NCBI GenBank assembly: GCA_044226625.1
Contig: JBGAGQ010000042.1
Span: forward strand, 1-53,439
Length of the DNA: 53,439 nucleotides
Origin: Thermoanaerobaculia bacterium
Lineage (GTDB): Bacteria > Acidobacteriota > Thermoanaerobaculia > Multivoradales > UBA5704
Direction: 5' to 3'
In this document: positions 20,797 to 44,246 of the stretch, in pieces
Numbering within the stretch: position 1 is the first letter of the stretch
How the letters are laid out: each line of letters starts with the position of its first letter
Notes under the pieces: generated by a model
Told to the model about the DNA's origin: nothing
Seen by the model: the letters and a program-made list of their open reading frames with translations, nothing else
The model's database searches: none
Translations under genes and position numbers: made by a program

Positions 20797-21055
20797 GGTT
20801 CGAACTCCTCCAACGCCCTGTCTCAATAAAGGGCGATCGATGTCCAGTCGATCGAAAGAGCAACGGCGATGCCATCGAGCGGGAGAGCCGAGAAAAGTCC
20901 TGTTTCTCCAAGCGTTTCGAGGAAATCCAAGGCGCTTCGAGAACATTCTTCGCCGCTGCGCGTAGAGCAAACGTATCCGCGAGAGGACGACCGCCCCGAG
21001 CCGCCGTCCTCTCGTCCTTGGCGGGTGAACGGCCGCCGCTTATACTGCGCCCCAA

Positions 21056-22246
21056 ATGTTCAAGGTTTTGGTTCTCGATGACGAGTCGATGGTGGTCGAC
21101 ATGCTCGCGCTCGCCCTGCGCGCGCCCGACGTGCACCTGACCACCTGCCTCGAAATCGAAGCCGCCGAGGCCTTGCTCGGGCAGACCCGCTTCGACGCGG
21201 TGGTGACCGATCTATCGGTCTCTCCGCTCGGCGGCCTGGAAGGCGTGCGCCTGATCCGTTTCGTCGCCACGCACTTCCCGGATACCTCGCTCTACGTCCT
21301 TTCAGGCTTCCTCGACGAAAGCGTCCGCTCGATCTGCCATCTCATGGGGGTCGCCGCGGTACTCGACAAGCCGGGGGGATTGGGCGAGCTGCGGCGCCTC
21401 CTGCTCGCCGAGCAAGCGCGCAAGACGGCCGCCGAGAGCTCAGGACCGAAGCCCGCGCCGCAGCCGCCGACCGTCGAAAAGGTGCCGCTCCTCGAGAGCT
21501 TCCTCTCCTCCGGCCCGCTCCACGCCTTGCTCCAGCCGGTCGTCCCGCTCGCGGACGGCGGACCGCCGTTCGAGGTATTCGGAGTCGAGGGGCTCGCCCG
21601 CGGGCCGGCGGGAGCGCTGCTCGGTATGCCGTCGCTGCTGTTCGCCTACGCGTCCAAGAAGGAGCTCGCGTTCGAGGTGGACCTTTTGTGCATCCGTGCG
21701 GCGCTCGCGGAATTCCAGCACCTCCCAGGGCCGCTCACGGCGTTTCTGAACGTCCAGCCGCGATCGCTCACCCACCCCGAGTTCACGCCGCGCCTCGTCG
21801 AGGCGCTCCGGACGGCCGAGGTCGACCATCGGAAGGTGATCCTCGAGCTCACCGAGCAGCACACGATCCTCAACCCGAGCGCTTTCGCGGCGACGCTCAC
21901 CAAGCTGCGTGACCTTGGACTGCGCATCGCGCTCGACGATTTCGGCGAAGGCTGGTCCAACCTGAACCTGTTCCTCGACCTGCGCCCCGAGTTCCTGAAG
22001 ATCTCCTCCGCCTTCTGCCGAGGCGTCGACGCCGATCCGTTCAAACAGGCCCTCGTCCGGTCGACCGCCGAGATGGCCGCGCGGACCGGCGCAAAGACCG
22101 TGATGGAAGCGGTCGAGACCCCCGCGGAAGCCGAAGAGATCCGCCGCCTCGGGATCGACTACGGCCAGGGTCATTTCTTCTCGCCGCCACGAACCGGACG
22201 CGAGATCGCGGCGGACGAAAGCTTGTACATTCCGCGCGCCGACTGA
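21056..22246 (+). CDS. Response regulator with EAL (c-di-GMP phosphodiesterase) output domain
   Basis: REC: VLVLDDE, VVTDLS, LSG, DKP; EAL: QPVV, EGLAR, FLNV, LELTE, DDFGEGWS, FLKI, EAVET, GQG. Confidence 0.9.
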   Translation: MFKVLVLDDESMVVDMLALALRAPDVHLTTCLEIEAAEALLGQTRFDAVVTDLSVSPLGGLEGVRLIRFVATHFPDTSLYVLSGFLDESVRSICHLMGVAAVLDKPGGLGELRRLLLAEQARKTAAESSGPKPAPQPPTVEKVPLLESFLSSGPLHALLQPVVPLADGGPPFEVFGVEGLARGPAGALLGMPSLLFAYASKKELAFEVDLLCIRAALAEFQHLPGPLTAFLNVQPRSLTHPEFTPRLVEALRTAEVDHRKVILELTEQHTILNPSAFAATLTKLRDLGLRIALDDFGEGWSNLNLFLDLRPEFLKISSAFCRGVDADPFKQALVRSTAEMAARTGAKTVMEAVETPAEAEEIRRLGIDYGQGHFFSPPRTGREIAADESLYIPRAD

Positions 22247-22398
22247 ATCTTTTACTTCCGCTCCTCCTCCGATCGTCCTCCGTGAGGTGACGCTCGGTCC
22301 GCCTCAAAAAGTCCGCAAAACCGCCGTTTTGAGAGATCGACCCGGGCTTCTCTCGCATGCCGATCGCTCCAAGACCGATGAAAATTTGCGCATAACGT

Positions 22399-22434
22399 CT
22401 ACAATTTGGCCGAAATTACTCGACCAAATTGTAG
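22399..22434. promoter_or_regulatory. 11-bp perfect inverted repeat, candidate regulator-binding site upstream of the peptide gene
   Basis: CTACAATTTGG-N14-CCAAATTGTAG in an AT-rich intergenic region. Confidence 0.55.
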
Positions 22435-22621
22435 GAACGTGTCACCGTTTTTTCGGTTCGCCACACTTGACACCGGTTACGGGTCGCTTGGTCGCGGTTT
22501 TTCCGTCTCCGCGGGGTGCTTTCTCACGAATTGCCTGAGCCTCGTGCTCAGCAGAGGACTTCCTCGCCCGAACCTCGAACCGAGCGCAACAACAACTTAC
22601 GATCTCTTGAAGGAGTAGTCG

Positions 22622-22807
22622 ATGTCGATTGAGAGCTTTCACCGTTCCCTCCAGAACGCTTGCGATTCGGACCCCTTTCTGGCTCGCCTTCGCGACATCA
22701 CGAAGATCGAAGAGCCTTCGCTGGCCCTGGCTTCCGGCGACGATCCGGATCTTTCGTGGCCCGTCTGGAACGGAAACTCCCTGTCGGCTACGCCCGCGAT
22801 TGCCTAG
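22622..22807 (+). CDS. Small Trp-containing peptide, candidate ComX-like/RiPP precursor
   Basis: 61 aa; AAGGAG RBS 6 nt before the ATG; GDDPDLSWPVWNG segment; followed by a terminator hairpin and a prenyltransferase gene. Confidence 0.7.
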   Translation: MSIESFHRSLQNACDSDPFLARLRDITKIEEPSLALASGDDPDLSWPVWNGNSLSATPAIA

Positions 22808-22811
22808 CCTG

Positions 22812-22851
22812 CTTCAGGGCTGAGCGTTCTCGTTCAGCCCTGAAGGTTTTT
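22812..22851 (+). terminator. Intrinsic terminator/attenuator between the precursor and prenyltransferase genes
   Basis: CTTCAGGGCTGA(GCG)-TTCT-(CGT)TCAGCCCTGAAG followed by GTTTTT, 5 nt after the peptide stop codon. Confidence 0.8.
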
Positions 22852-22896
22852 GCTCCGAACCTTCCTCAAGATAATTTTCAGTCTAGCCACCCTTAG

Positions 22897-23895
22897 GTGA
22901 TGTTGAATCCGCTGGCTCCCGATAGTGCTGTTCGAACAATTCCGAGATTTGAGCGTATCAAGCGCTTGATCACGGAACTTCCGGAAATAGGCCGTTGGCC
23001 GGACATGAAGGAGATTATCCGGAGTACGGCGCATCGAGAGGATCTCTCAGTTTGGGAGTACCCCGTCGTCGCATGCATCGCTTCAGGTGGAACCGAGGAA
23101 CAGGCTCTGCCATGTGCAGCAGCCATCTTCTGCGCCCTTAGCGCGATCCATCTCATCGACGATCTCCTCGACGAGGATCCCCAGGGCGCGTTTCGCAATC
23201 TCGGAGCGGGGCGTGCCGCTAATCTCGCCTCGGCCTTTCAGGCCGCCGCACATCGACTGATCGAGAGGGTCCCTCCCGGCTCGCGATCCTCGGATCTCCA
23301 GGCTCAACTTTCCCGCGCGTTCATCGCTACCGCCAGCGGTCAGGAGCTCGATACCGTCGAGGCGAAAACCGAAGCAGATTACTGGCAACGCGTCGAGGCG
23401 AAGACACCGCCCCTTTTTGCCGCGGCCTTCGCTCTTGGAGGCCTGATGGGTGGGGCCAGCGATGAAGCTGTTTCTGGCCTCGAGGTTCTGGGTCGCAACC
23501 TCGGCCGTTTCGTGCAAGTGAGCGACGATCTTGCCGATGCGCTCGACGTACCGGCGAGCGCCGATTGGAAGCGACCAAGAAACAACATCGCGCTTCTGTA
23601 CGCCATCACGGCAGCCCATCCGGACCGAGAAGAGTTTATTCGTCTTGCGAGGGAGGCCGAAACACCAGCTGCACTCGCAGTGGGCCAGAAGATCCTTTTC
23701 AAGTCGGGTGCCGTGAGTTACTGTGCGCTTCAAATGGATCACTTCTCCACCGAGTCTCGCCGCCAGGTGCAGGCTTTGTCGATCCGGTCACGCGCACCCT
23801 TACTCCGGATCGTGGACCGCCTGATCAAGCCCCTTGAGCACCTGCTGTCTTACCCATCAAGGGAGAGACTCGGAGGGGTTGCGGAGCTGAGGTGA
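22897..23895 (+). CDS. Class I isoprenoid-synthase-fold protein, ComQ-like peptide (Trp) prenyltransferase candidate
   Basis: FARM IDDLLDED, GQELD, KT, second motif SDDLAD; lacks GKxxRP and the post-FARM RRG of chain-elongating polyprenyl synthases; exact start (22897 or 22900) uncertain. Confidence 0.75.
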   Translation: MMLNPLAPDSAVRTIPRFERIKRLITELPEIGRWPDMKEIIRSTAHREDLSVWEYPVVACIASGGTEEQALPCAAAIFCALSAIHLIDDLLDEDPQGAFRNLGAGRAANLASAFQAAAHRLIERVPPGSRSSDLQAQLSRAFIATASGQELDTVEAKTEADYWQRVEAKTPPLFAAAFALGGLMGGASDEAVSGLEVLGRNLGRFVQVSDDLADALDVPASADWKRPRNNIALLYAITAAHPDREEFIRLAREAETPAALAVGQKILFKSGAVSYCALQMDHFSTESRRQVQALSIRSRAPLLRIVDRLIKPLEHLLSYPSRERLGGVAELR

Positions 23896-26800
23896 CTCAA
23901 AGGCCGCCCCGCCGAGCCGTAGACCTGACGTGGATCGCGGCGTCTCTTCTGGTCCTCGCCCCGACTCTGTATTACTCCTTCGCCGCTTTCTACCCTTCTC
24001 TCGAGGTTAGCCTCAGCTCCGACTGGAAAGTCATAGAAGCTCCGGAATGCCGGACGTCCGAGAACTGCCTGCGAATGGGAGAGCAGGTCGTCGCGGTAGG
24101 CGATATCGACCATGGCCGGTTCAAAGCGGATCGAAGTCTCGAGCTCTTCCAAGGGTTCTTGGCGAATGGAACAACTCTTTATACGGTGATCCGAGACGGA
24201 GAGAAAGTCAAAGTTCCCGGCCACTGGATCGAGGGGCCGAAGGCGTTGCTGGACCCTTCGTTCCCACAAGCCTTCCTGCCGCTCATCTTCTGGACCTTTG
24301 GCACCGCGATCGTCCTGTTTCTGAGACCCCGAGACGGACGGTGGCTCGCCTTCGTCCTGTTCGCCTACAACACGTCCATCCTCCTCTCCTCGGGCCTCGC
24401 ATCGGCTCGCCACGCCGCCGGCTCGGCGATCGTCTTTCACGTCGTGGTTTGGTTATTTCTCCCTTTGGCGACCCACATTCACACGTTTCTACCGAGCTCC
24501 CTTTTCGGCCGCTGGGGAGCGGCTGTGCTGGCTCCCCTCTACGCCGTTTCACTGCTCCTTGCCCTGCTCGACTCTCTTTACCTACTCGGTGGCTTTCCGA
24601 GCCTTTTCTGGATGTATTTCTTGGCGGGCCTGGCGCTTTCCTTTCTCTTCTTAGTCGTTCGGCTTCTTTTGCCGGCTCCACCCGCCGTGCGCCAAGCGAC
24701 GCGCATCATGCTGTTCGGCGTAACCTTCGGGTTCGCACCAATCGCCTCGGTTTTCGTCGTGCTCCCCCTGGTGGTGAGCCGATTGGGTGCAGCCGCTCCC
24801 GACTCCAAGACCTGGCTTCCCTGGGCGAGCGTTATTTTTCTGGTTGCGACACCGATCCCTCCCGCCACTTACATCTACGCGATCTACAAGCAGACCCTAG
24901 GAGCGTTGGAATTTCGCGCAAACCGGCTGATCGGCGCCTACAGCTTCTGGGCGCTTTATCTCACCGTGGCGATCGGTTTGCTTCTCTGGATCGGCTCCCA
25001 AGGCTATTCGGGCCGCCCCGGCACCCTCGCTGCCCTGCTCGCCACCTCAATCCTGTTGGTGATCCTGGCGCCCAGCCTGCACGACCGCTTCCGAACTCTG
25101 GTTGACCGGCATATTTTCGGCATTCGCCACACCCAAGAGGAGGTCGTTGGACTTGTGGCCGATCGAATTCCACGCGCCTTCGATCGCTCGGTTCTCGCCG
25201 CGACCCTGGTCAACGAGATCCTTCCGACCCTTCTAATCCGGCAGTCCGCACTCTATCTGTTCGAGGAGCGGGGCATTGAAGAGCTTTACTCCCAAGGGCT
25301 TCCCCCTCACGAGCAGCCTCTCGATCGTAGGGAAATTGAAGGCTTTCTCGCCCAGGGTCGCAAATACCTGCGCGAGCCGCAAGCCCGAGGCGCGGAACCT
25401 CGGAGCTGGGTCCGGCTGGCGCTCCCTCTCGAAGTGAAGGAGGAAAACCTCGGCGTCTGGCTGATGGGCCGGCGCGATCCAGACGACTACTACCCGGCGA
25501 GCGACATCCAGCTTTTGTCCACAGTTGCCAATCAGGTCGCCCCGATGCTCGAAAACATCCGCTTGTACGAGCAGGCCCAGGGAGAGATCGAGCGGCGTAG
25601 GGCGATCGAGCTGGAGATCCGCCAGAGCGAGCAGCGGTTTCGCGCCCTTTTCGAAGCGACGCTCGAAGGGATCGCGATCGTCCGCCACGGGACCGTTGTC
25701 GCGGTCAACAGCGCACTCACCGCGATCTTCAACGTGCCGGCTCTGGAGCTTCAGGGAGTGGCACTTTCGGAGCTGGTCGAGCTCGAAGGTCTACCCGAGG
25801 AGTCTCTCCTGAGCGAGCCCCTCGAGACGGTCGGTAGGCGCCGAGACGGATCGCTGGTGAACCTCGAAATCGCGGGCAAACGCATCTTGTTCCAAGGCGA
25901 AGAGGCGACCGTGGTCGCAATCCGCGACATCGAACGGCGCAAGCGTGACGAGGAGGAGAAGGACAGGCTGCAGCGCCAGCTCCTGCTCGCCGAGAAGATG
26001 GAGGCGATCGGCCGCCTCTCGGCCGGCGTCGCGCACGACTTCAACAACTGTCTACTCGCGATCTTCGGATACGGCGACCTACTCAAGGAGGTCTATCGCG
26101 ACGACGCCTTCCTTCAGGAGAACCTCAAGGGGCTACGCGAGGCGAGCGAAAAAGCGGCGGCTCTCACCCGCCAGCTTCTCGCGTTCTCCCGGCGCCAACC
26201 GGTCGAGCAGCGGGTGATCGACTTGAACGAGTCGATCTCCGGGCTGCTCCGCATGCTCCATCGCCTGCTCGGCAACGACGTCGAGGTCCGCACGGGCTTG
26301 CACCCCGACCTCCCCACCGTGCGCTTGGATCCGAACCGGCTGGAGCAGGTCCTCGTGAACCTGGCGGTCAACGCCCGGCACGCCATGCCGGACGGAGGCG
26401 TCCTTACCATCAGGACCGAGCCGGTCACCGTCGCCGACCAAGCGCCCGCCGAGCACGAGGTCCCGCCGGGAGTCTGGGCTCTGGTCGTCGTTTCGGACAC
26501 CGGCGTCGGCATGGACTCCGAAACCCTGGGACGGATTTTCGAGCCCTTCTTCAGCACACGCGGGGTCGGCGAGGGTACCGGTCTCGGTCTCGCGACCAGC
26601 TACGGCTTCGTCCAACAGAGTGGCGGCTACATCTTCGTCGACAGCGCGCCTGGGAAGGGGACGACGTTCAGCGTCTATCTGCCTGCCCATCTCGAGCGCG
26701 AGGTCGACCTCGGTCCGGCCCCCGAGGCCGGCGAAACCTCGGGCGACGAAACGATCCTCCTCGTCGAGGACGAGGGCAAGGTCCGCGAAGTCTTGCGCCG

Positions 26801-27116
26801 TATCCTCGAAGGGGGAGGGTATCGGGTCCTGGCCGCCCCGACCGGCGATGCGGCGATTGAGGTCGCGGCCGGCTACTCCGAAGCGATCGACCTGCTGCTC
26901 ACCGACCTCACGATGCCCGGTCTCAAAGGAACCGAGATCGCGGCCCAGCTGTCCGAGGAGCGTCAGGGGCTCCGTGTCCTCTATATGTCGGGTTATCGGA
27001 ACGAGGCCGTTCCGCTCAAGGGCGAGGGCCCCTTGTGCCTGCAGAAGCCGTTCTCAGCGACGGTCCTGCTGCGCGCCGTCCGCCGCGTGCTCGACGGTCC
27101 GCCTTCCGAGATCTGA
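23892..27116 (+). CDS. Multi-TM hybrid sensor histidine kinase (ComP-like sensor + GAF + PAS + HisKA + HATPase + REC)
   Basis: ~10 hydrophobic helices with an extracytoplasmic PDZ-like loop; AHDFNN H-box, NLAVNARHAM, DTGVGM, FEPFFST, GTGLGL; REC VEDE/TDLTMP/KP; GTGA overlap with the upstream gene. Confidence 0.9.
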   Translation: MTQRPPRRAVDLTWIAASLLVLAPTLYYSFAAFYPSLEVSLSSDWKVIEAPECRTSENCLRMGEQVVAVGDIDHGRFKADRSLELFQGFLANGTTLYTVIRDGEKVKVPGHWIEGPKALLDPSFPQAFLPLIFWTFGTAIVLFLRPRDGRWLAFVLFAYNTSILLSSGLASARHAAGSAIVFHVVVWLFLPLATHIHTFLPSSLFGRWGAAVLAPLYAVSLLLALLDSLYLLGGFPSLFWMYFLAGLALSFLFLVVRLLLPAPPAVRQATRIMLFGVTFGFAPIASVFVVLPLVVSRLGAAAPDSKTWLPWASVIFLVATPIPPATYIYAIYKQTLGALEFRANRLIGAYSFWALYLTVAIGLLLWIGSQGYSGRPGTLAALLATSILLVILAPSLHDRFRTLVDRHIFGIRHTQEEVVGLVADRIPRAFDRSVLAATLVNEILPTLLIRQSALYLFEERGIEELYSQGLPPHEQPLDRREIEGFLAQGRKYLREPQARGAEPRSWVRLALPLEVKEENLGVWLMGRRDPDDYYPASDIQLLSTVANQVAPMLENIRLYEQAQGEIERRRAIELEIRQSEQRFRALFEATLEGIAIVRHGTVVAVNSALTAIFNVPALELQGVALSELVELEGLPEESLLSEPLETVGRRRDGSLVNLEIAGKRILFQGEEATVVAIRDIERRKRDEEEKDRLQRQLLLAEKMEAIGRLSAGVAHDFNNCLLAIFGYGDLLKEVYRDDAFLQENLKGLREASEKAAALTRQLLAFSRRQPVEQRVIDLNESISGLLRMLHRLLGNDVEVRTGLHPDLPTVRLDPNRLEQVLVNLAVNARHAMPDGGVLTIRTEPVTVADQAPAEHEVPPGVWALVVVSDTGVGMDSETLGRIFEPFFSTRGVGEGTGLGLATSYGFVQQSGGYIFVDSAPGKGTTFSVYLPAHLEREVDLGPAPEAGETSGDETILLVEDEGKVREVLRRILEGGGYRVLAAPTGDAAIEVAAGYSEAIDLLLTDLTMPGLKGTEIAAQLSEERQGLRVLYMSGYRNEAVPLKGEGPLCLQKPFSATVLLRAVRRVLDGPPSEI

Positions 27117-27224
27117 TCCTCAATCCCTCCCGTCGCCACCCCTACGGGCAGGCGCGGAAGGTCACCCCACCTCCCCCTCCGAGGTGCTGAAACCGCCGCT
27201 CGAACGCGCTAAGGTTGCGCCCCG

Positions 27225-28616
27225 ATGGACGACCTCTGGCAGCCGATCCGGTTCGACCGCGCCCTGGTGGCGAAATACGACCGCCCCGGGCCGCGCTATA
27301 CGTCCTACCCGACCGCGCCGCATTTCCGCTCTGACTTCGGGCCCGCCGAGCACGCGGCCCTGCTCGCGCGAAGCGCCGAGATCGATCGGCCTCTGTCGCT
27401 CTACGTCCACATTCCCTTCTGCACGACGCGCTGTCTGTTCTGCGGCTGCAACGTCAAGATCGCGCGGGATCGGACCTGGGGCCGGCGCTACCTGCCGCTC
27501 CTCGAACGGGAGGCGGAGCTGTCGGCCGCAACGCTCGGCGCGGAACGGCGCCGGGTGGTCCAGGTGCACTGGGGAGGGGGCACGCCGACCTTCCTTCCGC
27601 CGGAAGACCTCCTCGATCTCATGGCGATCCTCCGCCGCCATTTCCGGTTCGACGAGGAGTGCGAGGTCGGGGTCGAGATCGATCCCCGCGAGTGCTCGCC
27701 CGCACATCTCGACGCGCTCGCCGCGGCGGGCGTGAACCGCCTGAGCTTCGGCCTCCAGGACCTCGATCCCGAGGTGCAAAGGGCCGTGCGACGGGAGCAG
27801 AGCGCGGCCGAGACCTGGGAGGTGATCGACGGGGCGCGGAGCCGCGGGATCGGCGAAAGCGTGAACGTCGACCTGATCTACGGTCTTCCGCATCAATCCG
27901 AGGAGAGCTTCGCCGAGACCGTCACCGAGGCGCTCCGGATGTCGCCCGACCGCCTGGCGCTGTTCAATTTCGCCTATCTGCCGCAGATGTTCCCCCATCA
28001 GCGGGCGATCGACCGCGGCGCGCTTCCGGACCCCGAAACCAAGCTGTCGCTGCTCGAACAGACGGTCTCGGCGTTCATCGCGGCGGGCTATGTGTTCATC
28101 GGCATGGACCATTTCGCCAAGCCCGACGACCCGCTCGCCCAGGCGCTTCGCGACCGGACCCTCACGCGTAACTTCCAGGGCTATTCGACCTTCGACGAGA
28201 CCGACATCGTGGCTCTCGGCGTGTCGTCGATCAGCCAGGTGGGCGACGGCTACGCCCAGAACGTGAAGAGTCTGGAGGAATACCGGCAGGCGATCGAAGC
28301 CGGGACTCTGGCCACCCAACGGGGCCTCGCGCTGAGCCGGGAAGATCTCCTGCGCCGCAGCGCGATCATGGGTCTGATGTGCCACTTCCGGCTCGACCGC
28401 CGCGCGTTCGCCGATCGGTGGGAGATCGACTTCGACCGCCATTTCGCGGCCGAGCTCGACCGGTTGGCACCTCTCGTCGACGACGGTTTGGTCGAGGTCG
28501 ACGAGGATCGGATCGAGGTCACCTCCATCGGGCGCCTGATGGTGCGGAACGTCGCGATGGCGTTCGACGCGTACCTCGAATCCGAGACGGCCGGCCGCTA
28601 CTCGCGCACGGTCTGA
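27225..28616 (+). CDS. hemN: Oxygen-independent coproporphyrinogen III oxidase (radical SAM)
   Basis: GPRYTSYPTA, YVHIPFCTTRCLFCGC, WGGGTPT, IGMDHFA, RNFQGYS. Confidence 0.96.
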   Translation: MDDLWQPIRFDRALVAKYDRPGPRYTSYPTAPHFRSDFGPAEHAALLARSAEIDRPLSLYVHIPFCTTRCLFCGCNVKIARDRTWGRRYLPLLEREAELSAATLGAERRRVVQVHWGGGTPTFLPPEDLLDLMAILRRHFRFDEECEVGVEIDPRECSPAHLDALAAAGVNRLSFGLQDLDPEVQRAVRREQSAAETWEVIDGARSRGIGESVNVDLIYGLPHQSEESFAETVTEALRMSPDRLALFNFAYLPQMFPHQRAIDRGALPDPETKLSLLEQTVSAFIAAGYVFIGMDHFAKPDDPLAQALRDRTLTRNFQGYSTFDETDIVALGVSSISQVGDGYAQNVKSLEEYRQAIEAGTLATQRGLALSREDLLRRSAIMGLMCHFRLDRRAFADRWEIDFDRHFAAELDRLAPLVDDGLVEVDEDRIEVTSIGRLMVRNVAMAFDAYLESETAGRYSRTV

Positions 28617-28626
28617 GCGACCGACG

Positions 28627-30015
28627 ATGTCCGACACAGGGAGCTCGAAGCCGCTCGACGTCCTGGTCGTCGGCGCCGGAATCTCCGGTCTCACCGCGGC
28701 CTTTCGCCTGAAGAAGTCCGGCCTCACGGTCGCCGTGATCGAGGCGAGCGGGAAGGTCGGCGGGGCGATCGAGACTCGATCCGAGAACGGATTCCTCTTC
28801 GAGCTGGGCCCGAACACCGTCCTCGAAAACCACCCGGCGATCGGCGAGCTCCTACGCGACGCCGGTCTCGTGGCCGAAGCCGACGGCGGCCGCATCGTCG
28901 CCTCGCCCACGGCCAAGAAGCGATATCTCTGGAAAGGCGACCGCCTGGAGGCCCTCCCCGGGGGCCCGCCGGGACTCCTCCGGACTTCTCTGTTTTCCTG
29001 GGGTGCCAAGCTCCGCCTGCTCCGCGAGCCCTGGATCGACCGGAGGAACCCGGCCGAGATCGCCGCCGAGCCCGACGAGACCGTCGCCGCCTTCGTCCGC
29101 CGGCGGCTCGGTAAGGAGATGCTCGACTATGCCGTGGGTCCGTTCGTCTCGGGCGTCTACGCTGGCGACCCCGAGCGGCTGGCGGTGCGCTGGGCCGTGC
29201 CGAAGATCTTCGCGCTCGAGGAGGAGCACGGCAGCCTGATCCGGGGCGCCTTCGCGAAGCGCAAGGGCCCCGCGCCCGGGGGGGCAATGTTCACCTTTCC
29301 GCGAGGGCTCGCCACCCTGCCGGAGCGCCTGGCTCAAGAGATCGGCGACGTGCGGACGGGGGTCGCCGCCAGGAAGGTGGCGCCGAGCGGCGACGGATTT
29401 ATCGTCGAGACCGACGCGGGGCCGATCGCTTCCCGCAAGGTCGTCCTCGCGGTTCCCGCCGACGCGGCCGCCCGGCTCCTCGAGAGAGCCACCGAGGGCC
29501 GGAGTCGAGAGCTCACCGAGATTCCGTACGCGCCGGTCGCCGTCGTCGCGCTCGGGATCGCCCGCTCCCGGATCGCCCACCCGATGGACGGCTTCGGCTT
29601 CCTCGCCCCGCGCCGGGAGAGCCTTCGCCTCCTCGGCTGTCTCTTCCCGTCGACGATCTTCCCCGGCCGGGCCCCCGAGGGGCACGTCGCGCTGTCGGCC
29701 TTCCTCGGCGGCCGGACCGATCCGGAGATCGCCGATCCCTCGATCTGGAACGACGGTCGGCTGCTCGGCCTGGTGCTCGAGGAGCTCGGAAGGGCGATCG
29801 GTCTTTCCGGCGCTCCGGAGGTTGCGATCATTCGGCGGTGGGCCCGCGCCATCCCGCAGTACGAGGCGGGGCACGGCCGCTTCGTCGATCTCGCCAGAGA
29901 GATCGAGCGCGCGCTTCCGGGGCTCCGTTTCGCCGCGAGCTTTCTCGGCGGGGTTTCGGTGCCCGACTGCATCCGCACCGCGACGCGGATCGCCACAGAG
30001 ATCCAGGGCGCCTGA
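28627..30015 (+). CDS. hemG: Protoporphyrinogen oxidase (HemY/HemG flavoprotein)
   Basis: VVGAGISGL FAD motif, FELGPN, SGVYAGDPE, GFGFLAP, AIPQY. Confidence 0.93.
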   Translation: MSDTGSSKPLDVLVVGAGISGLTAAFRLKKSGLTVAVIEASGKVGGAIETRSENGFLFELGPNTVLENHPAIGELLRDAGLVAEADGGRIVASPTAKKRYLWKGDRLEALPGGPPGLLRTSLFSWGAKLRLLREPWIDRRNPAEIAAEPDETVAAFVRRRLGKEMLDYAVGPFVSGVYAGDPERLAVRWAVPKIFALEEEHGSLIRGAFAKRKGPAPGGAMFTFPRGLATLPERLAQEIGDVRTGVAARKVAPSGDGFIVETDAGPIASRKVVLAVPADAAARLLERATEGRSRELTEIPYAPVAVVALGIARSRIAHPMDGFGFLAPRRESLRLLGCLFPSTIFPGRAPEGHVALSAFLGGRTDPEIADPSIWNDGRLLGLVLEELGRAIGLSGAPEVAIIRRWARAIPQYEAGHGRFVDLAREIERALPGLRFAASFLGGVSVPDCIRTATRIATEIQGA

Positions 30016-41780: not shown

Positions 41781-42277
41781 AACCAGCCTCTGAGCCCTCG
41801 GCTCCGACGCTGATTCCCACTCGGTTTCGAGAGCCGATCTGGCGGGATCTCTCCTACCCGATCGGATCTACTCAACTGAGCGCAGAGCTCGCAGGCGTGC
41901 CGCAGTTCTCTATGCTCAGTGTGGCGTTCTCTGGAGTGCCCTACCAGTGGAGGGACAAGGGGTACCTGCACCAGTTGGCGCACCAACCGCGTCCGGTGCT
42001 CGAAGCCTTGTACTCGAACAAACGCGTCGGCTTTAGGACTAGCAATGACGACGTCGCCCGCGGAGCTTTCGGAGAAAAATGGGACCTGACCGTGTACGCC
42101 GTACCGAGCAGCCTCAAGGCCACGATCCGTGCCGCCCTCGGTGCCGAAGGTCTCGCGACCGTGCGCGATTGGCTCGCGAAACCGAGGTCCGAAACCTGGC
42201 GCGGAGACAGGCGCCACCAGCTCGAGATTCTGTATGACTTCGACGCTCGGGTGATGAGTTGCCAGGAGAATCGGTAA
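41777..42277 (+). CDS. Hypothetical protein
   Basis: ATGA overlap with the patA stop; 166-aa protein-like sequence MKPASEPSAP... Confidence 0.6.
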   Translation: MKPASEPSAPTLIPTRFREPIWRDLSYPIGSTQLSAELAGVPQFSMLSVAFSGVPYQWRDKGYLHQLAHQPRPVLEALYSNKRVGFRTSNDDVARGAFGEKWDLTVYAVPSSLKATIRAALGAEGLATVRDWLAKPRSETWRGDRRHQLEILYDFDARVMSCQENR

Positions 42278-42307
42278 GAGCACTTCGCAGACCTCGTGCG
42301 AACTCGA

Positions 42308-42697
42308 TCATGTGCTCGGCCGTTCGATAGCCGAAGTGTGAAGAAATTGACGAGCTTGCGTTTCTTGCCAGTCGGAATTGAGTTTGTTGGCTGCACGCCA
42401 CCTCCGAATCGTATCTTCGGTGAAATTCTTCTCATCCAGGATCGCTTGCTTCAGGAGGTGGCAGAATAGCTCGGTAAGCTTCCCATACACTTCTGCAACC
42501 TGGCGCTGTTTGCGAGCTTCACTGGTTTCCAGCTTATTGATCATTGACCGGGTCGTTCGTATTGCGAGCCAGACATCGGCGTTCGTTCTGCGGCGTAGTT
42601 CTCGTAACCTAATTCCTTGAACAGCGGCGACTAGAAGGCCCACCACGCTCGACGCCGTTCCAAGTATTGTCATGGCTGAAGCAGTGTCCATTTTCAC
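42308..42697 (-). CDS. Hypothetical protein with N-terminal TM helix
   Basis: 129-aa ORF, AGGAG RBS, A/T-richer codons. Confidence 0.65.
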   Translation of the reverse strand: MKMDTASAMTILGTASSVVGLLVAAVQGIRLRELRRRTNADVWLAIRTTRSMINKLETSEARKQRQVAEVYGKLTELFCHLLKQAILDEKNFTEDTIRRWRAANKLNSDWQETQARQFLHTSAIERPST

Positions 42698-42798
42698 AAG
42701 CTCCTAAATAGCGACCCGCTCCCGCTCACCCCCATTGATTGCACAAAGCACAATGAGAAGAGAGACATGGGCCAAGGAAGATACACGAGTATACTTGA

Positions 42799-43716
42799 GT
42801 GATGCCAAAGAAGATCGCCGGCTCCTTCATCAACCTTGTTCACGAGGCCACCCTTAAATCTTTCTGGCGCCGCAATGCGCTTTGGCGTTTCCTCAGACAA
42901 CAGGGGATAGCCGATTCATTCCTAGCCACCTGGGAAGAATCTGAGTCGAAACGTGACTTCCTCGACCGCCTCTTCATGAAGATTCCATCTGCTCCTGAAG
43001 GCCAGAGGCTTATTCTCGGGATGGCGCAGGATCTTGCGGCCCAGGACTCCTTTCCAGACTTGATGGGCTGGGAGGACAGCTCACAGCTCCTCCAGAACGC
43101 CCGCTCTGCGGTCGCAAATCTTAAGAGCGCCCTTGCGCGACTCAACAAGGAAGTTGTTCTGGAGCGCGACCGCCAGGAATCACAGGCTCGAGTTCAGAAG
43201 CTTTATGAAGAAAGCGCGCAATCACGTTCGAACCTTGACTCTCTTGGTGCCCGACTTGGAAAGCTAGCCACTTCACTAGGAACGCAGCAGGCAGGCTATG
43301 ACTTTCAAGATTGGTTTTACGATCTTGTGGCTCACTTTGAGGTGGTCTTCCGGCGACCCTACATCACCGCAGGCCGCCAGATCGATGGCTCCATTACCGT
43401 TTCCGGGACGACTTACCTTATCGAGACCAAGTTCACCAGGGATCAGGCAGCGGCCGAGGATATCGATTCCTTTTTCAAGAAGGTCACCGAAAAGGCCGAT
43501 AACACGATGGGTGTTATGGTTTCAATTTCTGGATACTCGGCAGTCGCCATAGCCGAGGCTTCAAAACCTAAGACGCCCCTCCTCCTACTTGATCATGGCC
43601 ACCTCTACCACGTACTTGGCGGAATTGCTACCCTTCCGGAGGTCATCGAACGAATTCGCCGCCATGCCTCCCAGACCAGCGAGTCCTACTTACCAGCCTC
43701 ATTGTTGAACTGTTAA
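42799..43716 (+). CDS. Mrr-like PD-(D/E)XK restriction endonuclease domain protein
   Basis: C-terminal GYDFQDW...RQIDG...LIETK...GVMVSISGY; A/T-richer composition; no adjacent methyltransferase. Confidence 0.75.
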   Translation: MMPKKIAGSFINLVHEATLKSFWRRNALWRFLRQQGIADSFLATWEESESKRDFLDRLFMKIPSAPEGQRLILGMAQDLAAQDSFPDLMGWEDSSQLLQNARSAVANLKSALARLNKEVVLERDRQESQARVQKLYEESAQSRSNLDSLGARLGKLATSLGTQQAGYDFQDWFYDLVAHFEVVFRRPYITAGRQIDGSITVSGTTYLIETKFTRDQAAAEDIDSFFKKVTEKADNTMGVMVSISGYSAVAIAEASKPKTPLLLLDHGHLYHVLGGIATLPEVIERIRRHASQTSESYLPASLLNC

Positions 43717-43835
43717 CAGTGTCCCTCCTCGAAAGGATATCGAGCTGCTAACTAAGCGGGCACCAATCGATGCCTTCAAGTTAGACCTACGCAAATTTAG
43801 ACCGCCCGACACTGACCCGAGACTCGGAATAGGGC

Positions 43836-44246
43836 TCAGCTATCCAACCAGTTCTCGACCCGAAGTTCCGGCACGCGGGAGAATTCTTCGACGTTCGCCG
43901 TGACCAGGATCAAATCGAGCGCCAGCGCATGGGCGGCGATCAGCAGATCGTTGGGGCCGATCGGCATTCCGCGCCGGTGGAGATCGAGCCGAATCTCGGC
44001 GTATCGACGATCGGCGGTCTTGTCCAAGGCGAAGACCTCCAACCTTTCCAAGAGGGCTTCGATCCGGTCCGAAAGCCGGAGTGAGCCCTTCTTGGCGGCG
44101 CCGAATCGAAGCTCGCAGGCGACGATGATGCTCGTGCAGACCTTGGCCTCCCCCACGAGAGCGATCTTTCGGGCTACCTGTCCCTCGGGATTCCGCAGCA
44201 GGTCCGACAGGACGTTGGTGTCGAGGAGATACCGAAAATCGGCCAT
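43836..44246 (-). CDS. vapC: VapC PIN toxin
   Basis: Start MADFRYLLDTN (ATG 44246); ELRFGA, IGPNDLLIAAHA, LVTANVEEF. Confidence 0.93.
   Translation of the reverse strand: MADFRYLLDTNVLSDLLRNPEGQVARKIALVGEAKVCTSIIVACELRFGAAKKGSLRLSDRIEALLERLEVFALDKTADRRYAEIRLDLHRRGMPIGPNDLLIAAHALALDLILVTANVEEFSRVPELRVENWLDS

Follow-up and report, generated by a model that had tools for sequence, protein, structure and literature searches.

The locus described here raises the question of whether peptide pheromones prenylated on tryptophan, such as that of the ComQXPA system of Bacillus, have a counterpart outside the Firmicutes, and whether such a signal could act through cyclic di-GMP (c-di-GMP). It lies within the 53,439 nucleotides of contig JBGAGQ010000042.1 (assembly GCA_044226625.1, Thermoanaerobaculia bacterium), a stretch referred to as a whole as the window. 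The ORF calls for the window confirm four co-oriented open reading frames (ORFs) on the + strand at 21056-27116, as the original prediction, made from the letters alone, had described them: a response regulator with receiver and EAL domains (REC-EAL), a 61-amino-acid peptide with two Trp residues (W46 and W49), an enzyme with an isoprenoid synthase fold, and a hybrid histidine kinase with about ten transmembrane helices (Table 1). The coordinates, Pfam matches and ten hydrophobic segments all bear out these identities, and the last two genes do overlap by GTGA, the enzyme stop TGA being at 23893-23895 and the kinase GTG at 23892. Since the nearest homologues (72% enzyme identity) are labelled Thermoanaerobaculia or Acidobacteriota metagenome-assembled genomes (MAGs) by their sources, the acidobacterial host that had been deduced for this DNA holds. 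We consider that there is somewhat better than an even chance that the four genes form a ComQXP-like, probably Trp-prenylated, peptide-signalling cassette with c-di-GMP output.

Judged from sequence, the 61-amino-acid ORF is a member of a real and widespread gene family. The window peptide has no match to any Pfam family at E<=1, ComX (PF05952) included. By tblastn it finds matches in 18 of 20 loci around enzyme orthologues of related genomes, the two misses being L010 and L012; L012 is the same place as L030, where a hidden Markov model (HMM) of the peptide found two peptides. GGAG-type ribosome-binding sites also precede the homologous peptide ORFs. An alignment of 20 peptides has invariant columns M1, S2, F6, L23, W46 and W49, and all share a layout of leader (M-S-I-x-D/S-F-H ... 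L-R-x-L ... E-D-P), variable spacer, invariant W-x-x-W and variable tail. The peptide profile, searched against 1.84 billion cluster representatives, had 303 matches at E<=1e-3, of which 54 reached E<=1e-10. Among the best 150 of these 303 matches, 146 are 100 amino acids long or less, and of those 146 a W-x-x-W motif is present in 142 and exactly two Trp in 133. In the same best 150, between 0 and 23 residues follow the motif (median 12.5), compared with 12 residues from W49 to the end in the window peptide. Rare single-Trp variants (in loci L075, L078, L080, L081 and L091) retain the second Trp, which makes W49 the likelier acceptor.

The tails of these peptides differ in sequence and length, with a preference at their last position. 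Of the 142 peptides with a W-x-x-W motif, 67 end in Ala and 16 in Val, compared with 17.7% Ala elsewhere in the tails; as the representatives are not independent, the p-value for this bias is indicative only. PDZ domains recognise free C-termini, and the preference for Ala or Val would fit recognition of a free C-terminus of this kind. A double-glycine leader cleavage site was considered and rejected, given that Gly precedes the first Trp in only 52 of the 142 peptides. The peptide is single-copy in this genome. Multi-core precursors also exist: protein P0188 has four repeats of the core, with its leader-like segment repeated too, and in two loci named Myxococcota the W-x-x-W motif occurs four times in the precursor of L077 and three times in that of L085. 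In addition, in many of the loci L027-L072 a further, paralogous peptide gene separates enzyme from kinase (order X-Q-X'-P); it lies about 1.1-1.5 kb downstream of the enzyme start, with a leader of the form M-L/F-I-x-E-F and cores resembling W-x-E-W-P; in the window's genus the upstream peptide copy occurs alone.

The association of the peptide with the enzyme and the kinase was surveyed in 80 loci, taken from a scan of one genome per species. A family peptide adjoins the enzyme in 75 of them, 71 detected by HMM and four more by stop-to-stop translation of the nine that the HMM had missed; two of the five peptide-less loci have no upstream sequence. The small Trp-containing ORF which the original prediction placed next to the enzyme is thus found beside its homologues as well. 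The N-terminal 430 residues of the kinase are encoded beside the enzyme in 70 of the 80 loci, and in six of the ten misses the contig ends just after the enzyme gene. REC-EAL lies upstream of the cassette in 57 of the 80, each of them a locus of the acidobacterial type. From these frequencies it follows that peptide, enzyme and sensor form the core of the cassette and that REC-EAL is a lineage-specific partner. The gene arrangement is far beyond chance. In locus L055 (the same place as L014) the enzyme gene is inverted with respect to REC-EAL, peptide and kinase, and all four are still linked.

Most of the 80 loci come from Thermoanaerobaculia, Holophagales or Acidobacteriota MAGs. Other names among them are Myxococcota, Deltaproteobacteria, Chloroflexota (Anaerolineae, Ardenticatenaceae and Caldilineaceae) and the flavobacterium Aureisphaera galaxeae. 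The Myxococcota-named loci include a cultured carrier, Plesiocystis pacifica SIR-1 (L085), which is kinase-less; the kinase is missing from the loci named Myxococcota and Deltaproteobacteria. The Chloroflexota-named loci keep peptide, enzyme and kinase, with kinases that are not hybrid. Restriction of the peptide-enzyme adjacency to a single recent clade is already unlikely on these data. In a set of 61 genomes of the same order, 32 of the 36 further members of the window's family encode an enzyme orthologue at E<=1e-50, as do 3 of 24 from other families. The distribution is patchy, because in an even sample of the phylum strong enzyme matches (E<=1e-30) came from 5 of 401 genomes, and these include the window's own and a congener.

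The enzyme matches Pfam polyprenyl_synt (PF00348) above the cut-off (E 1.8e-15), and its AF2 model (pLDDT 93.7) superposes on trans-isoprenyl diphosphate synthases (trans-IPPS) with Z scores of 27-30.6, 16-22% identity and root-mean-square deviations (rmsd) of 2.5-3.1 over about 290 residues. The best superposition is on 4gp2_B (Z 30.6, rmsd 2.6 over 293 residues). In sequence the solved synthases are weakly similar to the enzyme (best phmmer E 6.2e-09, best profile E 4.3e-16). Ord1 (9v4g/9v4j) is a distant match (phmmer E 4.1e-06, profile E 3.4e-10) and is absent from the 50 best matches in the VIA structure search; a search of the ESM Atlas with the enzyme returned generic polyprenyl_synt clusters only. 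Both Asp-rich motifs of the chain-elongating trans-IPPS are present together with the fold. Across 118 members of the enzyme family D88, D89, D92, Q207, D210, D211, D214 and the GQxxD motif are invariant, as are P172 and L173 of a K-T-P-P-L motif whose K169 and T170 are each kept in at least 90%.

The family departs from the chain-elongating enzymes at the site of the second substrate. The basic motifs GKRxRP and RRG of farnesyl and geranylgeranyl diphosphate (FPP and GGPP) synthases bind the diphosphate of isopentenyl diphosphate (IPP). In a MAFFT sequence alignment with one canonical reference only, the separate canonical polyprenyl synthase that this genome encodes, the GKRLRP of the reference (motif I, GKRxRP) falls in a gap of the window enzyme, and RRGRPTVH (RRGxPT), after the first Asp-rich motif, likewise has no counterpart. 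In place of GKRLRP the family has S-V-W-E/D-Y-P, with W53 and P56 invariant. The comparison with FPP and GGPP synthases that had been called for thus yields a trans-IPPS fold from which motif I for IPP binding is missing. With the IPP-binding motifs lost, chain elongation becomes less likely and a different nucleophile more so.

A complex of the enzyme with the peptide was also predicted. Three runs gave ipSAE scores of 0.84, 0.82 and 0.84, as against 0.02 for the best of three controls, with a partner pLDDT of at least 67 and at least 68% of contacts in common between runs; the mark for such scores is reached by 58 of 80 solved complexes and by 2 of 110 mismatched pairs, and is rough when one's own alignments serve as input. 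In the model, the leader (residues 1-36, the invariant F6 and L23 among them) rests against enzyme helices 234-241, 261-282 and 308-321, which carry the family-invariant residues G271, S274 and C276. Core residues 43-50 are placed against enzyme residues 47, 50, 52, 159, 170, 206 and 209-216, that is, on the side of the cleft formed by the KT motif and the second Asp-rich motif (SARM). The predicted complex supports docking of the leader and entry of the W-x-x-W core into the active-site cleft, and is a model of binding from which no chemistry can be read. With a conserved leader, a variable core and tail, and a predicted leader-binding surface on its neighbouring enzyme, the peptide has the organization of a precursor of a peptide synthesized ribosomally and modified post-translationally (RiPP).

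The same data bear on a rival explanation, in which the enzyme is an ordinary polyprenyl diphosphate synthase making GGPP and the small protein is a regulatory or structural subunit, as in heteromeric prenyl synthases, with no modification taking place. Source annotations do call the enzyme homologues GGPP synthase, the fold is identical to the GGPP synthase type with both Asp-rich motifs, GQxxD and KT retained, and the predicted binding would suit a subunit too. We nevertheless regard this as very improbable: the GKRxRP and RRG motifs are absent, the genome has its separate canonical synthase, an invariant W-x-x-W within a variable region reaches the active-site cleft of the model, cores are repeated in some precursors, and the gene is tied to a sensor kinase. 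Chain-elongating trans-IPPS (GGPP synthase, octaprenyl diphosphate synthase, Rv0562) share fold, first Asp-rich motif (FARM), SARM, GQxxD and KT with the window enzyme, and differ from it in the two basic motifs and in the family-specific C-terminal surface predicted to hold the leader.

Three Trp prenyltransferases of the IPPS fold paired with a short Trp peptide have been described, ComQ/ComX, PalQ/PalX and StheQ/StheX, two of them with a kinase gene (PMC4008528, PMC10853753, 10.64898/2026.08.29.745113). Our comparisons with ComQ, ComP, StheQ and PalQ are drawn from published descriptions. ComQ, an enzyme of the PF00348 family, attaches a prenyl group to a Trp of ComX; the kinase ComP has about ten transmembrane helices and a HisKA_3 domain; and a 2014 census placed comQXPA in Firmicutes only (PMC4008528). 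Shared with the window are an enzyme of the PF00348 type adjoining a Trp-containing precursor of 50-70 amino acids, a kinase with about ten transmembrane helices, overlapping genes, and polymorphism of enzyme, peptide and kinase N-terminus next to conserved cytoplasmic parts (PMC4008528). The differences are considerable. The gene order is R-X-Q-P here and Q-X-P-A there; the peptide is not of the Pfam ComX family and has a W-x-x-W core followed by a long tail; the ComP-type kinase has HisKA_3 (PF07730), whereas the kinase here is a HisKA (PF00512) hybrid with GAF, PAS and receiver domains and a periplasmic PDZ-like domain; and the output would be a c-di-GMP phosphodiesterase in a presumably diderm acidobacterium, with no regulator of the NarL type (ComA) annotated among the window genes beside the cassette. 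ComQ also combines its FARM with a pseudo-SARM (NDxxx), in place of the full DDxxD SARM (D210, D211, D214) found here. By pseudo-SARM, ComX family, HisKA_3 and ComA alike, then, the cassette is not a sequence-level member of ComQXPA, and the original prediction was right to call it analogous.

The other two pairs are closer in some respects. PalQ of Paenibacillus alvei is a Trp prenyltransferase of the IPPS superfamily whose gene accompanies those of a kinase (PalP) and an NHLP precursor; its discovery came by way of a predicted enzyme-peptide complex, and a role in holding the indole NH has been proposed for its Q197 (PMC10853753). Q197, D200 and D204 of PalQ are spaced as are Q207, D210 and D214 here (PMC10853753), so that both clusters combine a histidine kinase, a precursor and an IPPS-superfamily enzyme with Q-x-x-D-x-x-x-D by the acceptor site or, here, at the corresponding positions. 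PalX differs in its NHLP leader and its strictly C-terminal Trp, compared with a leader that has no Pfam match and an internal Trp, and kinase architecture and output differ as well. StheQ and StheX come from Sphaerobacter thermophilus (Chloroflexi), outside the Firmicutes: a ComQ homologue with a pseudo-SARM residue N215, whose N215D mutant loses 98% of activity, adjoins a 69-amino-acid peptide with two Trp, the leader-like part of which binds the enzyme while the flexible C-terminal part enters the active site (10.64898/2026.08.29.745113). StheX lies downstream of StheQ and has WW next to its C-terminus, StheQ has the pseudo-SARM, and the sections of that account available to us describe no kinase or output. 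The original prediction knew of no system of the present kind described in Acidobacteriota. As far as the cassette goes this stands, no description of it having been found in the open-access literature searched (supplements and subscription journals were outside the scope), but the pairing of such an enzyme with a Trp peptide outside the Firmicutes is already known from StheQ/StheX (10.64898/2026.08.29.745113).

The kinase (23892-27116) has Pfam matches to GAF, PAS, HisKA (PF00512), HATPase_c and a receiver, and hydropathy places its ten hydrophobic segments in residues 15-396. A confident model of the N-terminal 430 residues (pLDDT 87.3) begins with one transmembrane helix (TM1), continues with a small, beta-rich domain in the periplasm (residues 34-120) and ends with nine more helices. 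Model residues 34-120 align with the PDZ domain 4l8n_A (VIA Z 7.3, rmsd 3.2 over 81 residues) and have local Foldseek matches to the PDZ domains of HtrA, DegS and MucD at E 0.4-0.9; sub-threshold Pfam PDZ matches occur in three of nine scanned homologues, and look-alike clusters in the ESM Atlas that bear PDZ are to be taken as leads only. A PDZ-like periplasmic domain is therefore likely. Conserved residues include C53, C59, G63 and D64 in this domain, and H183, H195, H197 and the loop Y327..R345 in the membrane module. Foldseek gave no match at E<=1e-3 for the N-terminal model. A resemblance of the kinase N-terminus to seven-transmembrane, G-protein-coupled receptor and ACER3 folds (Z 7-9.5) was dismissed, as it is within the range of common helical arrangements.

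The candidate output protein, REC-EAL, matches Response_reg with E 4.1e-09 and EAL with E 1.7e-44, and residues 3-377 match NCBIfam RR_EAL_PvrR below the cut-off. An active REC-EAL protein is defined by a phospho-acceptor Asp and by the catalytic set E, N, E, D, D, K, E. Receiver residues D9, D52, S83 and K105 are kept in 55-56 of 56 REC-EAL orthologues, and the same is true of E178, R182, N232, E264, E267, D294, D295, K315, E351, E354 and Q371 of the EAL domain. When REC-EAL is aligned with the active enzyme BlrP1, all aligned EAL residues are kept except the Asp of K-x-D. A second connection to c-di-GMP comes from proteins P0364 and P0365, which carry this sensor joined to GAF-GAF-HD-GYP in place of a kinase. 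Of 80 metagenome loci for P0364, four cover the sensor and were examined. The sensor-HD-GYP fusion is encoded directly 3' of a family peptide and enzyme in two of these, L102 and L114, with cores W-T-G-W and W-F-G-W in that order; in L103 the enzyme gene upstream of it is truncated where the contig begins, and L104 is without upstream sequence. The link to c-di-GMP is thus independently supported, at the level of sequence, by loci in which a sensor-HD-GYP protein follows the peptide-enzyme pair, and the suggestion that output may run through a c-di-GMP phosphodiesterase gains from them. There is a precedent in RpfC/RpfG of Xanthomonas, in which a hybrid kinase responds to a diffusible, lipid-like signal (DSF) and controls a c-di-GMP phosphodiesterase coupled to a receiver. 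That signal is a fatty acid and the HD-GYP domain is on the regulator; here the signal would be a ribosomal peptide, with REC-EAL, or HD-GYP fused to the sensor.

Comparison within the genus shows a steep gradient of divergence across the locus. Identity is 86-89% in the flanking PBP1A gene product, 87-92% in EAL and 79-85% in the catalytic core of the kinase; it falls to 64-73% in the enzyme, 61-67% in the peptide leader and 51-57% in kinase TM1 plus the PDZ-like domain, the most divergent kinase segment in the genus, and the peptide core cannot be aligned. This gradient is suggestive of pherotypes, by analogy with the polymorphism of ComQ, ComX and the ComP N-terminus in Bacillus. It also bears on whether the peptide leaves the cell. 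Modified or not, it might be a private, cell-bound ligand of the kinase, for instance a membrane-anchored prenylated co-factor that reports isoprenoid supply or the state of the envelope and is not secreted. This would account for a cassette without an export function, an enzyme that uses a central lipid precursor, the large membrane module with its conserved His and Tyr residues, and the overlap of the enzyme and kinase genes. Strong within-genus divergence of the peptide tail and core and of the periplasmic domain fits discrimination between lineages better than a housekeeping role, however, and the C-terminal residue is conserved despite a variable tail, so we think a cell-bound ligand quite unlikely.

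Another explanation is that peptide and enzyme make a lipidated RiPP natural product (an antimicrobial, a surfactant or a membrane-active lipopeptide), and that the kinase serves only to regulate or autoinduce this production, in the manner of NisK and nisin, or senses something else; the peptide would then not be a dedicated signal between cells. Multi-core precursors are typical of natural-product RiPPs, and the peptide-enzyme loci in the Myxococcota-named records L077, L085 and L086 have no kinase; the role of the StheQ/StheX product is likewise not known. This explanation is unlikely in our judgement, although the likeliest of the alternatives. Neighbour annotation finds no exporter, peptidase or other protease, and no immunity or further tailoring gene, beside the cassette in the window; in 70 of 80 loci the pair comes with the membrane sensor, which is elsewhere joined directly to a c-di-GMP phosphodiesterase; and the fastest-diverging parts are the peptide core and the periplasmic domain.

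We return to the signalling cassette, the account we favour. It builds on what was computed, namely the reality of the genes, their synteny, the enzyme fold and loss of motifs, the predicted docking, and the sensor's repeated association with c-di-GMP phosphodiesterases. The 61-amino-acid gene would encode a RiPP-type precursor whose leader docks on the family-specific C-terminal helices of the neighbouring enzyme. This enzyme, of trans-IPPS fold, with the Asp-rich motifs for metal and prenyl diphosphate kept and the IPP-binding motif lost, would transfer a prenyl group to a Trp of W-x-x-W, with W49 the likelier. The modified peptide would be processed and exported by unlinked factors and sensed by the periplasmic PDZ-like domain and polytopic module of the hybrid kinase, and phosphotransfer, probably by way of a histidine phosphotransfer (Hpt) protein encoded elsewhere, would control REC-EAL and hence hydrolysis of c-di-GMP. 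Prenylation with a given chain length, secretion of the peptide, its recognition by the kinase as a ligand and a phosphorelay ending at REC-EAL are steps that we infer.

Several findings weigh against this account. The chief one, as regards a simple analogy with ComQ, is the full DDxxD second motif: proven ComQ-type enzymes have Asn in this motif, and Asn-to-Asp mutants lose about 90% (ComQ) or 98% (StheQ) of activity (10.64898/2026.08.29.745113). Because Asp occupies the pseudo-SARM Asn position in all 118 sequences, the active site here is not of the ComQ/StheQ type, an objection softened but not removed by PalQ. The Trp core lies 0-23 residues from the C-terminus, unlike ComX, in which the Trp is within 5-10 residues of it. 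Neither an exporter nor a leader peptidase is part of the cassette in what is presumably a diderm host. A hybrid kinase normally requires an Hpt domain to reach a separate receiver; there is none in the window, and the six found elsewhere in the genome all lie within large open frames. In REC-EAL itself and all 56 orthologues the Asp of K-x-D is replaced by Ser (S317, 22004-22006). The PDZ assignment, which rests on a Z score of 7.3 and sub-threshold Pfam matches, is likely and not settled, and periplasmic domains in general tend to diverge faster, an alternative cause of the divergence gradient. Loci L077, L085, L086 and L092 have full flanks and no such kinase, which means that the peptide-enzyme pair can serve another purpose. 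Finally, expression has minimal support. RNA run X6 yielded two contigs of 151 nucleotides, at 23865-24015 (the enzyme-kinase junction) and 24204-24300 (kinase), with at least 99% identity; two read-length contigs in a single library are weak evidence. No contig of this run covers the peptide gene, and such contigs can show neither absence nor level of expression.

A wider proposal, which we put forward tentatively and hold to be possible rather than probable, is that these genes represent a previously undescribed family of Trp-prenylated ribosomal pheromones in diderms (Acidobacteriota/Thermoanaerobaculia and Chloroflexota-named bacteria). The family would show pherotype-like divergence; a PDZ-like and polytopic receptor would read free C-terminus and lipid together and set c-di-GMP through a REC-EAL phosphorelay or a fused HD-GYP domain; and the enzyme would be an independent recruitment of an IPPS scaffold to peptide prenylation, with an active site of the three-metal type. 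Peptide pheromones have been treated as a speciality of Gram-positive bacteria, and prenylated-Trp pheromones as a curiosity of Bacillus and its relatives. If the proposal were true, lipopeptide signalling would extend to abundant diderm bacteria of soil and sediment, including uncultured Acidobacteriota, and ribosomal peptide signals would be tied directly to c-di-GMP and hence to decisions on biofilm and motility. It would also provide a new scaffold for peptide prenyltransferases, of use for peptide lipidation, in which the leader is defined and the recognition core, W-x-x-W, is short.

Table 1. Features of the four-gene locus (window coordinates) and of related precursors in other loci (coordinates within the locus named)
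Feature	Position	Strand	Basis
REC-EAL response regulator, c-di-GMP phosphodiesterase of the PvrR/RocR type, candidate output	21056..22246	+	Pfam, NCBIfam
Conserved non-coding block 5' of the peptide gene, possibly promoter/operator	22429..22522	+	same-genus alignment
Ribosome-binding site GAAGGAG, 6 nt before the peptide ATG	22609..22615	+	read from sequence
Precursor peptide, 61 aa: leader ~1-33, spacer, core W46-P-V-W49, 12-residue tail ending in Ala	22622..22807	+	
Codons of the peptide core W46-P-V-W49	22757-22768	+	
Hairpin and T-run between peptide and enzyme genes (terminator or attenuator)	22812..22855	+	
Enzyme of trans-IPPS fold, proposed peptide (Trp) prenyltransferase	22897..23895	+	Pfam, model, VIA
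Enzyme FARM, D88-D92	23158-23172	+	
Enzyme Q207 and SARM D210-D214	23515-23538	+	
Kinase residues 1-125: TM1 and periplasmic PDZ-like domain, candidate ligand-binding part	23892..24266	+	
Kinase residues 126-396: nine more transmembrane helices	24267..25079	+	hydropathy, model
Kinase cytoplasmic part: GAF, PAS, HisKA, HATPase_c, C-terminal receiver; hybrid, CckA-like core	25185..27116	+	Pfam, NCBIfam
Precursors that are multi-core or from kinase-less loci	L077:4662-4973; L085:4715-4984; L086:4712-4975		

The non-coding segments on either side of the peptide gene have features of their own. The hairpin that follows it has 15 pairs, 9 of them G-C, and is the longest stem among nine terminator-like sites in 20800-27400; G+C-rich hairpins of different sequence, read by eye, also lie 3' of homologous peptide genes. 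In an alignment of six same-genus intergenic regions, invariant columns are most densely packed in the block at 22429-22522, about 100-190 nucleotides upstream of the peptide start; this block may serve the peptide operon as promoter or operator. An Rfam scan of 22200-22950 gave one match at chance level only (E 0.97) and assigned no family to this block. An RNA structure for the block is unsupported (-9 kcal/mol, with compensatory change in 2 of 13 pairs), as is a promoter of the sigma-54 type, judged by eye. A 15-nucleotide inverted repeat at 22399-22434 (93% complementary, 6 nucleotides apart) overlaps the -10 of a promoter-like site at 22378-22405; the repeat is not conserved in the same-genus loci.

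Among the sequencing runs, the whole stretch is present in the probable source sample only, and the contig from that run is one base shorter than the window at 22498, in a non-coding T-run. The flanks are unrelated to the cassette. Upstream, on the opposite strand, are genes for PBP1A and an outer-membrane beta-barrel protein; downstream are HemN-like, amine-oxidase, amylase and sugar ABC genes. The HemN-like radical-SAM and amine-oxidase (protoporphyrinogen-oxidase-like) genes lie 3' of the kinase at 27225-30015 and seem to be unrelated to the cassette as well; HemN is 88% identical in L021, the sole locus that extends so far. The G+C content, about 0.65 over the window, drops to 0.551 at 42001-44000 and, more mildly, to 0.596-0.612 over 22001-26000, which comprises the peptide gene, the enzyme gene and the 5' part of the kinase gene.

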